Positions 849-1,800 of a stretch of DNA of 2,876 bases are shown here, one piece after another. A model generated the notes under the pieces. The model was given only the letters and a program-made list of their open reading frames with translations, was not told the origin of the DNA and ran no database searches. The translations under genes and the position numbers were made by a program. Every line of letters starts with the position of its first letter. Within the stretch, counting starts at the first letter, position 1. This DNA is from Escherichia coli (GTDB lineage: Bacteria; Pseudomonadota; Gammaproteobacteria; Enterobacterales; Enterobacteriaceae), in NCBI RefSeq assembly GCF_003334315.1, contig NZ_QOWR01000107.1, one strand, 5' to 3'.

Positions 849-1109
849 TTAGGGAAAAATAAGAAAAAAATAATCATCTTCTACATTTGTGTATATTGAT
901 ATATCCACCGCTACGTGCGGAAAAAAATCTGGGAGCCATGTAAAAACTCCATCATTTTCTGGTATTGCCATATAGTTTATGTAATGTTTACTTACAAGAG
1001 ATTCATCTTTGTATAAATAAAGATAAGTAATTACGCATAAAACAACAATGATTATAATAGCAAAAATAAATATTATCATCTTTGATAGATTACTTGAGAT
1101 AGCCAGCAT
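849..1109 (-). CDS. Hypothetical small membrane protein (86 aa, one predicted TM helix); candidate immunity protein for the orphan toxin
   Basis: Seen in sequence: ATG at 1107..1109 overlaps the last 20 nt of the orphan toxin ORF, with an AAGG 9 nt upstream (plus 1119..1122). An alternative in-frame ATG at 1077..1079 lies just past the toxin stop but has no SD. Residues ~11-33 ([23 protein letters not shown]) form a strongly hydrophobic stretch. Position and strand fit the toxin-then-immunity rule of Rhs and CDI loci. The ORF is AT-rich and short, so it could be fortuitous. Confidence 0.45.
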
Positions 1110-1800
1110 CTTGTAAAGCCTTTATCGTTTTTTTATGCTCTGGATTAATATAATCACTACATCTATCTGAGCAATCTGTTGTTGATGGACATGTCAACCC
1201 ATGGTCATTTACAGCCAAGTCTTTTTTATTATCTTCAATCATTTCAGAATGGGATAGCTTTACTTTTCTGCCGTACATACCGAACAGATTTAACCCGTAA
1301 TCTCTAATCTCTTTTTCATAACCCAGCCCTTTCGCCGATCGGCTAACACCAGCGTCATTTAATTTAGACACTCGACAAAATGCCATACAATGGAAAAATT
1401 GATTAGTCCCACCTAAATTTAATCTCTTCATATCTTCATAAGTATCAGATAATATATCCCATGCTCTTTGATGGTTTAGTTGATCTTTTCTTCTTATTAG
1501 CGCTACATCTGCGGGACTTAACCCTAATGGATCAATACCATTCACCGGATTCAGCGGATACGCATACAGACTCCATCCCCCCTCCAGCCCTATCGGGTCC
1601 TGAGTGATATACCGCCCCTGCAACGGATCGTAGTACCGGTTCCGGTTGTAGTACAGCCCCGACTCCTTATCATACTGCTGCCCCGGCAGCCGGTACGGCT
1701 GGTGCAGGTGATGCGGGTTCTCTTCATTCAGCTGGTTGCCCCACTCATCATACTCCCCGCTCCACGCAATGTTTCCATCCGCATCCATCAGCGCCAGCAT
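1090..1800 (-). CDS. ylbH: Orphan Rhs C-terminal module (236 aa): 94 codons of Rhs core homology then a distinct ~142-aa toxin domain; possibly a silent or pseudogene-like stored toxin tip
   Basis: Seen in sequence: translation begins [94 protein letters not shown], i.e. Rhs core tail with DPLGL at 1519..1533. This segment is about 80% identical (by-eye protein comparison, 11 differences in 54 aa) to the core tail of the upstream Rhs gene. The ATG at 1798..1800 overlaps the immunity TAA (1800..1802) and has no obvious SD. The 711-nt size and 1-nt overlap match my recollection of K-12 ylbH (unverified). Confidence 0.8.
1093..1518 (-). other. Orphan toxin domain (~142 aa), unrelated to the main toxin domain; activity unknown
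   Basis: Seen in sequence: AT-rich segment after DPLGL encoding [142 protein letters not shown]. It has five Cys, including HCxxxC and CxxxDCxxxC spacings. No similarity to the main toxin domain is visible. Confidence 0.65.
1519..1800 (-). repeat. Rhs core 3'-end homology block, orphan copy (direct repeat partner of 2715..2876 and of sequence beyond the window)
   Basis: Seen in sequence: 1519..1680 aligns without gaps to 2715..2876 at a constant offset of 1196 nt, with high nucleotide identity (e.g. gggtcctgagtRatataccgcccctgcaacggatcgtagtaccggt shared). 1681..1800 presumably matches core sequence to the right of the window. Confidence 0.85.

Follow-up and report, generated by a model that had tools for sequence, protein, structure and literature searches.

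A serum amyloid A-like toxin tip in the orphan Rhs fragment of the Escherichia coli rhsD locus, with YbbD as its predicted immunity partner

What kind of domain ends the orphan Rhs gene that stands beside rhsD in Escherichia coli? The question is raised by a 2,876-bp stretch of E. coli DNA (assembly GCF_003334315.1, contig NZ_QOWR01000107.1; here, the window), which matches E. coli chromosomes at 99.9% identity over its full length and is the rhsD locus, with the RhsD tip (DUF4329), ybbC, the orphan ylbH/rhsH, and ybbD. An earlier reading of the letters, made by eye and here called the sequence-only reading, had described the 142 residues that follow the DPLGL motif of the orphan as a toxin-type tip that belongs to no assignable family and does not resemble the main RhsD tip. 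Translation of the minus strand recovered exactly this domain at positions 1093 to 1518. The position claimed for it at the C terminus of an orphan Rhs fragment was also borne out: the domain directly follows a PxxxxDPxGL Rhs core end, as a Rhs toxin tip does, and the Prokaryotic Genome Annotation Pipeline (PGAP) records the fragment as a pseudogene without its N terminus. DUF4329, the domain that makes up the main RhsD tip, is indeed unrelated. The family, in contrast, could be assigned. We conclude that the 142 residues are very probably a prok-SAA domain, that is, a bacterial relative of serum amyloid A (SAA) in the SAA-Wnt clade of the Lipocone superfamily, serving as the C-terminal toxin tip of a Rhs polymorphic toxin.

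This assignment is carried by the family rather than by the single protein. A HMMER scan of 1.84 billion representative proteins returned 77 relatives of the tip (E ≤ 1e-3, down to ~30% identity). Most of these are the ends of Rhs/YD proteins, including YD/Rhs proteins of 1706 and 1935 residues that have SAA among their precomputed Pfam matches. The relatives with a complete domain, 49 with the window tip included, were aligned (alignment A1); 34 of the 49 match the Pfam family SAA (PF00277) singly at E ≤ 1e-3, the best at 1.1e-25. Searched against the sequences of the PDB, the A1 profile found SAA chains only (7zh7, E = 3.9e-13; 4ip8, E = 1.1e-10; 4q5g, E = 8.4e-10), with the best match outside SAA at E = 0.11, whereas a phmmer search of the same sequences with the single tip gave no match, so that the family profile was needed. 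AlphaFold2, with A1 as input, predicted an all-helical tip (predicted local distance difference test score, 94.7; predicted TM-score, 0.88) with helices at residues 2 to 20, 26 to 38, 43 to 65, 77 to 95, and 103 to 110 and an extra helix at 116 to 124. In a Foldseek search of the PDB with this model, which the sequence-only reading had proposed as a check, the top six matches were SAA1 or SAA3 (probability, 0.99 to 1.0; target-normalized TM-score, 0.67 to 0.72), whereas the next match had a probability of 0.05 and none below the six exceeded 0.12. The tip is thus not of unknown family. The tip DNA is found at 95 to 99.8% identity in 2852 of the 5426 complete E. coli genomes, and 1761 of them carry the arrangement of the whole window. 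Given this spread, the 77 relatives, and the invariant cysteines described below, the observation lies far beyond chance.

Other searches of the tip were silent. NCBIfam holds no model for the tip itself, PADLOC gave no match for the tip, YbbD, YbbC, or the RhsD tip, and the Pfam and PADLOC scans produced no credible nuclease, deaminase, or peptidase match for the tip. Weak Pfam matches to Peptidase_C7 and OCRE were set aside as noise (E ≥ 0.003, absent from the relatives). A stretch of the tip also looks like human SAA by eye; that resemblance served as a lead only.

Neither the family nor the SAA likeness of this tip is new to the literature, and the discovery therefore adds little in itself. 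The Lipocone superfamily, its SAA-Wnt clade, and prok-SAA as a family of polymorphic toxin tips were described by Burroughs, Nicastro, and Aravind (eLife 2025; PMC12419801), who predicted that prok-SAA domains act on phosphate-linked lipid head groups. Their Prok-SAA list includes HAU8267270.1, with 59% identity to the window tip; none of E. coli, YlbH, and YbbD was found in the text supplements, where this relative was all that turned up. In 2020, an in silico study had found that the C terminus of RhsD from enterohemorrhagic E. coli (EHEC) EDL933 (z0651) resembles human SAA1 (4ip8, TM-score 0.623) and read it as host directed (PMC7216683). Like other prok-SAA domains, the window tip is predicted to be a helical cone with a fifth helix, has the invariant His, Glu, and Asp and the N-x-x-G cap, is soluble (grand average of hydropathy, −0.71), and stands at the C terminus of Rhs polymorphic toxins ahead of a membrane-anchored immunity gene; unlike them, it has an additional C-terminal helix. 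With animal SAA (PF00277; 4ip8, 4q5g, 7zh7) it shares the fold and a profile similarity of E = 4e-13 to 1e-9, and three motifs can be aligned (M-x-x-A-N-x-x-G-x-D-K/Q-Y/F-F-H, R/K-E, and D-x-x-A-N-x-x-G). Animal SAA, however, is a secreted acute-phase protein associated with high-density lipoprotein, not a toxin tip, and has no immunity partner. A clear match to a characterized nontoxic family is what the sequence-only reading had named as telling against a toxin, and animal SAA is formally such a match. Toxin status is not overturned by it, because the bacterial branch ends Rhs toxins beside membrane-anchored immunity genes.

The residues that A1 holds constant coincide with the pocket described for the superfamily. 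The Lipocone active site is inferred to comprise a His in helix 2, a Glu in helix 3, and an Asp in helix 4, supplemented by an acidic residue where helix 3 ends, a polar residue farther on in helix 4, and a capping Gly (PMC12419801). In A1, this pattern is matched by H43, E70, D73, D100, N104, and G107; all of these are invariant except D73, which like D96 is present in 48 of 49 sequences. In the AlphaFold2 model, H43, E70, D73, D100, and N104 are placed in predicted helices 2, 3, and 4. The five cysteines noted in the sequence-only reading were confirmed, at residues 44, 48, 110, 116, and 120. They form two clusters, FFHCMAFC and a second that reads C-x5-C-x3-C and not CxxxDCxxxC as that reading had it. 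All 49 sequences have C44, C48, C116, and C120, and 41 have C110; combined with the model, the invariant four make up one CX3C on helix 2 and one on the fifth helix. In wider-family sequences from the supplement of PMC12419801, checked by eye, members without C44 also lack C120 and members without C48 also lack C116; 8 of 9 informative sequences follow this pattern. Disulfides C44-C120 and C48-C116 are therefore probable from the alignments. Vertebrate SAA keeps the fold while lacking all four of these conserved cysteines; together with the paired losses, this argues that the cysteines are disulfide staples and not a metal site, so that of the two folds first suggested, disulfide rich or metal binding, the former fits better. 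Such staples would suit action outside the cytoplasm.

A gene with the YbbD_head domain (PF26610) directly follows tips that are 99%, 92%, 56%, and 37% identical to the window tip (the genes after the last two encode proteins of 173 and 143 residues, respectively). Because a YbbD-family gene accompanies related tips in this way, YbbD is likely to be the cognate immunity protein of the tip, as predicted from gene order. The sequence-only reading had proposed expressing the tip with and without the open reading frame (ORF) at 849 to 1109, and this ORF, the likely immunity gene, proved to be real: it encodes an 86-residue head of YbbD, which matches NF011297 (E = 4.7e-58) and the 173-residue homolog (BLASTP, E = 5e-12) and covers only positions 1 to 85 of the 163-residue model NF011298. 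A Pfam scan of the 86 residues returned no significant family; PF26610 is the precomputed label of its relatives. The head consists of an N-terminal transmembrane helix (residues ~12 to 30; Kyte-Doolittle 19-residue maximum, 3.37) and the first part of the YbbD domain. The enterobacterial versions (E. coli and GCA_003324795.1) share the N-terminal transmembrane helix, and a distant version begins with a lipoprotein signal (LLAAC). Both features agree with the pattern reported for Lipocone immunity proteins, all of which are membrane anchored or lipoproteins (PMC12419801).

The tip is not an orphan everywhere. In E. coli O157:H7 F8798 (locus positions 3233 to 7670), a 1398-residue RHS core protein between ybbP and mnmH ends in an SAA-like tip ~99% identical to that of the window, with Asp at residue 39 and one other change, K130E; an 86-residue frameshifted ybbD comes directly after it. 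In E. coli GCA_051151135.1, a 1400-residue Rhs protein carries a 92%-identical tip at its end, and the ybbD behind it is intact and encodes 163 residues. The same tip thus ends full-length Rhs proteins at the same locus in other strains, and "orphan" describes the strain, not the domain. The K-12-type and O157-type arrangements differ by a cassette of DUF4329 and ybbC, which was either inserted before the old tip or deleted by recombination at core ends; the C-terminal displacement model of rhs evolution is background to this comparison. The layout of the window, in which a full-length rhs is followed by a short core remnant with DPxGL, then a tip, then an immunity gene, is also that of the Salmonella rhs orphan (PMC7043789). 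Unlike in Salmonella, the immunity gene of the window is frameshifted and the tip is probably inactive in the cytoplasm.

From these elements, we propose a mechanism that we hold to be plausible although tentative, in which a delivered tip acts in the periplasm, cleaves a phosphate-linked lipid head group, and is blocked by YbbD. On a full-length Rhs protein, the tip would be cut at DPLGL and delivered to a neighboring cell, where it would work in the periplasm or on the inner membrane's outer surface as a soluble cone of five to six helices stapled by C44-C120 and C48-C116. His43 on helix 2, Glu70 and Asp73 on helix 3, and Asp100 and Asn104 on helix 4 would attack the phosphate linkage of the head group, in a chemistry modeled on the cleavage of lipid II by TelC, and membrane-anchored YbbD would stop the toxin on the periplasmic side. 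TelC, an LXG toxin and lipid II phosphatase of Streptococcus intermedius, is the one characterized Lipocone toxin and is toxic only outside the cytoplasm; it shares the superfamily and the His/Glu/Asp pocket with the tip, and the immunity protein that blocks it is membrane associated (PMC12419801). The periplasmic site of action is inferred from this precedent, from the invariant CX3C pairs, and from the membrane anchors of the proteins in the immunity position. Taken as a whole, from family to mechanism, we consider this explanation the probable one.

Several observations weigh against it. The window protein alone reaches Pfam SAA only below threshold (E = 0.0054 and 0.0014), although SAA is the best non-Rhs match of the orphan ORF. 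The motif sNxxGR of the clade reads VNDHGL in the window: s-N-x-x-G is kept and invariant in A1, but the Arg, variable across the subfamily of this tip, is replaced by a hydrophobic residue. The disulfide pairing relies on a count by eye of which cysteines are present or absent, not on measured distances. The literature search yielded no experimental study of any prok-SAA toxin, this tip included, and the enzymatic mechanism is an extrapolation from members of other Lipocone clades, TelC and PTDSS. The partner also differs from those described: Imm-SAA proteins have an alpha-helix, four beta-strands, and four absolutely conserved cysteines, and BamE-like proteins are also named as partners (PMC12419801). 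YbbD, compared with Imm-SAA by description and not by sequence, lacks the four cysteines; in its family alignment, one Cys is nearly invariant (W122-C123) and another, near the C terminus, is variable, and the sole Cys of the 86-residue head lies inside the transmembrane helix. Its predicted fold gave no informative match. The apparently intact tip of the full-length Rhs protein of O157:H7 adjoins a frameshifted ybbD, which would be odd if the toxin were potent and expressed. Finally, the proposed delivery is tentative, given that the PAAR motif is only weakly detected (E = 0.059 and 0.61 in the first 200 residues of the Rhs protein of GCA_051151135.1, compared with 6e-19 for DUF6531) and that K-12 is not known to have a type VI secretion system (T6SS).

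In F8798 itself, the pairing admits three options: the head alone protects, the toxin is unexpressed, or it is harmless to its producer. The 86-residue head could be a sufficient minimal immunity protein. If so, it would explain both the intact toxin beside a frameshifted ybbD in O157:H7 and the apparent essentiality of the head in one TraDIS (transposon insertion sequencing) data set of K-12.

The main rival shares the periplasmic site but dispenses with catalysis. In it, the SAA-like cone would bind OmpA-family proteins at their periplasmic C-terminal domain and disturb the connection of the cell wall to the outer membrane, and the conserved His, Glu, and Asp would line a binding groove, not a catalytic site. 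Its precedent is BteO, a T6SS effector of Bacteroides fragilis (9uu0) reported to be a nonenzymatic OmpA binder that kills from the periplasm; mutation of H144, E168, D187, or D191 abolishes both toxicity and OmpA binding, and the immunity protein mimics the OmpA C-terminal domain (PMC12541434). For human SAA, moreover, binding to OmpA of E. coli has been reported (cited in PMC12419801). The BteO study, however, assayed peptidoglycan hydrolase and amidase activities only and not lipid-linked substrates, and the residues essential in BteO resemble the Lipocone catalytic set. The A1 profile has no detectable sequence similarity to 9uu0, and no OmpA-like fold shows in YbbD. We regard OmpA binding as unlikely, and head-group cleavage in the periplasm as the better account.

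A second rival places the activity inside the producing cell. The orphan would be translated there, for example by coupling to ybbC, and neutralized by the 86-residue YbbD head, much as in the orphan Rhs-CT/RhsI pair of Salmonella, whose orphan tips have internal promoters and act as type II toxin-antitoxin modules (PMC7043789). The orphan ATG overlaps the ybbC stop in a TAATG, which makes translational coupling conceivable despite the pseudogene annotation, and a table from genomic systematic evolution of ligands by exponential enrichment (SELEX) contains an RpoD site between ylbH and ybbD. In K-12 TraDIS, the interval from the ybbD start to its first stop lies above the essentiality threshold (PMC5821084). 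The insertion-free stretch, though, spans ybbC, rhsH, and ybbD and coincides with the binding of H-NS and StpA to these genes in K-12, and it has been classed as a false positive (PMC9948719); coverage by H-NS and StpA is thus a mundane explanation of the apparent essentiality. Our promoter and terminator scan did no better than on shuffled sequence (promoter-like motifs, 9 versus 7.0 ± 3.2). The apparent need for disulfides and the membrane-anchored partner also make cytoplasmic activity unlikely, and TelC is inactive there. An internal toxin-antitoxin-like module is accordingly improbable.

Very improbable, in our estimate, is the proposal made for EHEC RhsD in 2020 that the domain is a host-directed mimic of animal SAA, acting in inflammation, chemotaxis, or aggregation. 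The fold and sequence likeness to human SAA1 is real (PMC7216683; A1 profile and Foldseek above), and some relatives end in ...YRPAGLPAEY, near the SAA C terminus. Yet the conserved, adjoining gene for a membrane-anchored protein in the immunity position argues for a bacterial target, the family is widespread in environmental Rhs/YD proteins that are not host associated, and the transfer proposed in PMC12419801 runs from bacteria to animals. Least credible of all is a cysteine cluster that binds metal (Zn or Fe-S) and belongs to a domain active in the cytoplasm, as a nuclease-like enzyme or otherwise. The five closely spaced cysteines and the His beside the first of them might recall such a cluster, but it sits poorly with one CX3C on each of two helices, the paired losses counted above, the fold of vertebrate SAA, which does without these cysteines, and the want of any credible nuclease, deaminase, or peptidase match.

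The periplasmic toxin favored here would probably not be deployed from the window copy. The sequence-only reading had taken the orphan for a stored, presumably silent module. This is plausible, since the binding of H-NS and StpA in K-12 supports silencing of ybbC-rhsH-ybbD; in the window, however, a frameshifted ybbD and a substitution in the tip mark the module as also decaying. In the window, ybbD is a pseudogene spread over three frames between 617 and 1109. Its shifted pieces match NF011298 at positions 85 to 132 (frame −3, E = 1.2e-19) and 119 to 163 (frame −2, E = 1e-28), and it differs from the intact gene of GCA_051151135.1 by two deletions of 1 nt each, the first in a T-run near 870 and the second in an A-run near 760. 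The O157:H7 ybbD has the first deletion in common with the window and a different second one. Only two bases, at 1404 and 2443, distinguish the window from the closest complete genome. The former changes tip residue 39 from Asp (GAT in all close E. coli genomes) to Asn (AAT); this column holds Asp in 48 of the 49 A1 sequences, the window being the sole exception. Residue 39 sits at the start of helix 2, four positions, or one helical turn, before His43, and D39N may be inactivating. The latter falls on residue 145 of the RhsD C-terminal fragment as translated, which is Ile in the window and Thr in the nearest genome. Because the exact 236-residue protein occurs on 11 public contigs, the N39 form is a natural rare allele. 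The orphan has no delivery part and lies in a stretch that H-NS and StpA occupy in K-12, so this copy is probably undeployed: without a Rhs shell its product could not be delivered and, if the periplasm is needed for activity, would also be harmless inside the cell.

The value of the locus lies in what it might make accessible. The biochemical function of SAA has been debated for decades, and the 2025 analysis proposes an origin of SAA among bacterial toxin tips with the ability to cleave lipid head groups (PMC12419801). With an SAA-like tip in the best-studied bacterium, that proposal becomes directly testable in E. coli, where nature supplies the variants: full-length Rhs proteins paired either with an intact 163-residue YbbD or with a truncated one, and an orphan with D39N. 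One outcome would be that the tip is an esterase for head groups linked to lipid II or undecaprenyl phosphate; another, that it is an OmpA-binding toxin, would account for the binding of human SAA to OmpA of E. coli. That tip and YbbD will in fact serve as a natural, genetically tractable model for the biochemical activity of SAA is nevertheless a doubtful prospect. For annotation, ylbH/rhsH and the C terminus of EHEC RhsD can be described as SAA-like (Lipocone) toxin domains, and YbbD as a predicted immunity protein.

The features of the window are collected in Table 1. The annotated genome lists, along the minus strand of the window, rhsD, ybbC, an RHS core pseudogene, a YbbD family protein, a short partial ORF, and IS3; its rhsD is a 4281-nt gene, of which the window takes in only the end. 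The orphan, annotated as "RHS repeat-associated core domain-containing protein," is of the K-12 type, ylbH/rhsH followed by ybbD, and ybbC stands between the main RhsD tip and this orphan.

Table 1. Coordinates of genes, motifs, and tip residues in the window
Feature	Position	Strand	Remarks
IS3 transposase gene end	1-92	plus	adjoins 43-aa ORF
43-aa ORF, starts MPQYGGPIVQGSAGV	89-220	minus	resembles full-length Rhs N terminus (MTQYGGPIVQGSAGV)
Remaining ybbD, two other frames	617..858	minus	frame −3 and frame −2 pieces
ybbD "head" ORF, 86 aa	849..1109	minus	20-nt overlap with toxin ORF
Orphan Rhs ORF, 236 aa	1090-1800	minus	C-terminal part is the 142-aa tip
SAA-like toxin tip of orphan ylbH/rhsH, 142 aa	1093..1518	minus	translation
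C120 codon	1159-1161	minus	
C116 codon	1171-1173	minus	
C110 codon	1189-1191	minus	
G107 codon	1198-1200	minus	
N104 codon	1207-1209	minus	
D100 codon	1219-1221	minus	
D96 codon	1231-1233	minus	
D73 codon	1300-1302	minus	
E70 codon	1309-1311	minus	
C48 codon	1375-1377	minus	
C44 codon	1387-1389	minus	
H43 codon	1390-1392	minus	
N39 codon	1402-1404	minus	
DPLGL cleavage motif	1519-1533	minus	end of core remnant
Rhs core remnant, 94 aa	1519..1800	minus	NF041261 RHS_core, TIGR03696, Pfam RHS
TAATG overlap	1798-1802	minus	ybbC stop and orphan ATG (1798-1800)
ybbC, 122 aa	1800..2168	minus	ORF, annotation; YbbC/YhhH family, immunity position for main RhsD tip
rhsD 3′ end (core end to DPMGL, then RhsD tip)	2208..2876	minus	RHS_core and Rhs_assc_core matches
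Main RhsD tip, DUF4329 domain	2211-2714	minus	PF14220, E = 4.9e-37

The first 94 residues of the orphan ORF match NF041261 RHS_core at positions 1169 to 1261 (E = 2.2e-50) and TIGR03696 (E = 3.3e-24). The two Rhs core ends share a direct repeat of 162 nt, with 1519 to 1680 being 80% identical to the main rhsD core end at 2715 to 2876; as for other orphan Rhs tips, this core-end repeat could mediate fusion to the main gene. The GC content is 57 to 58% in the core remnant versus 29 to 37% in the tip. DUF4329, the domain of the main tip, has been termed an RNase domain by a cited study.

Two further arrangements of related tips came to light. In GCA_003324795.1 (1832 to 6183), an orphan row comprises an Ntox16 fragment, a DUF6714 protein, an SAA-like orphan with the 173-residue YbbD, TseH, and Imm58; its SAA-like tip is 56% identical to that of the window, and the row is a multicassette Rhs tip array. 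At the opposite end of the window, the 43-residue ORF is a stray 5′ fragment of a Rhs gene, judging from its likeness to the N terminus of full-length Rhs. In one database protein (P0041), an SAA-like tip is joined to the tail of this ORF (...DPTHVIWTQA), a fusion that suggests deletion variants of the locus.

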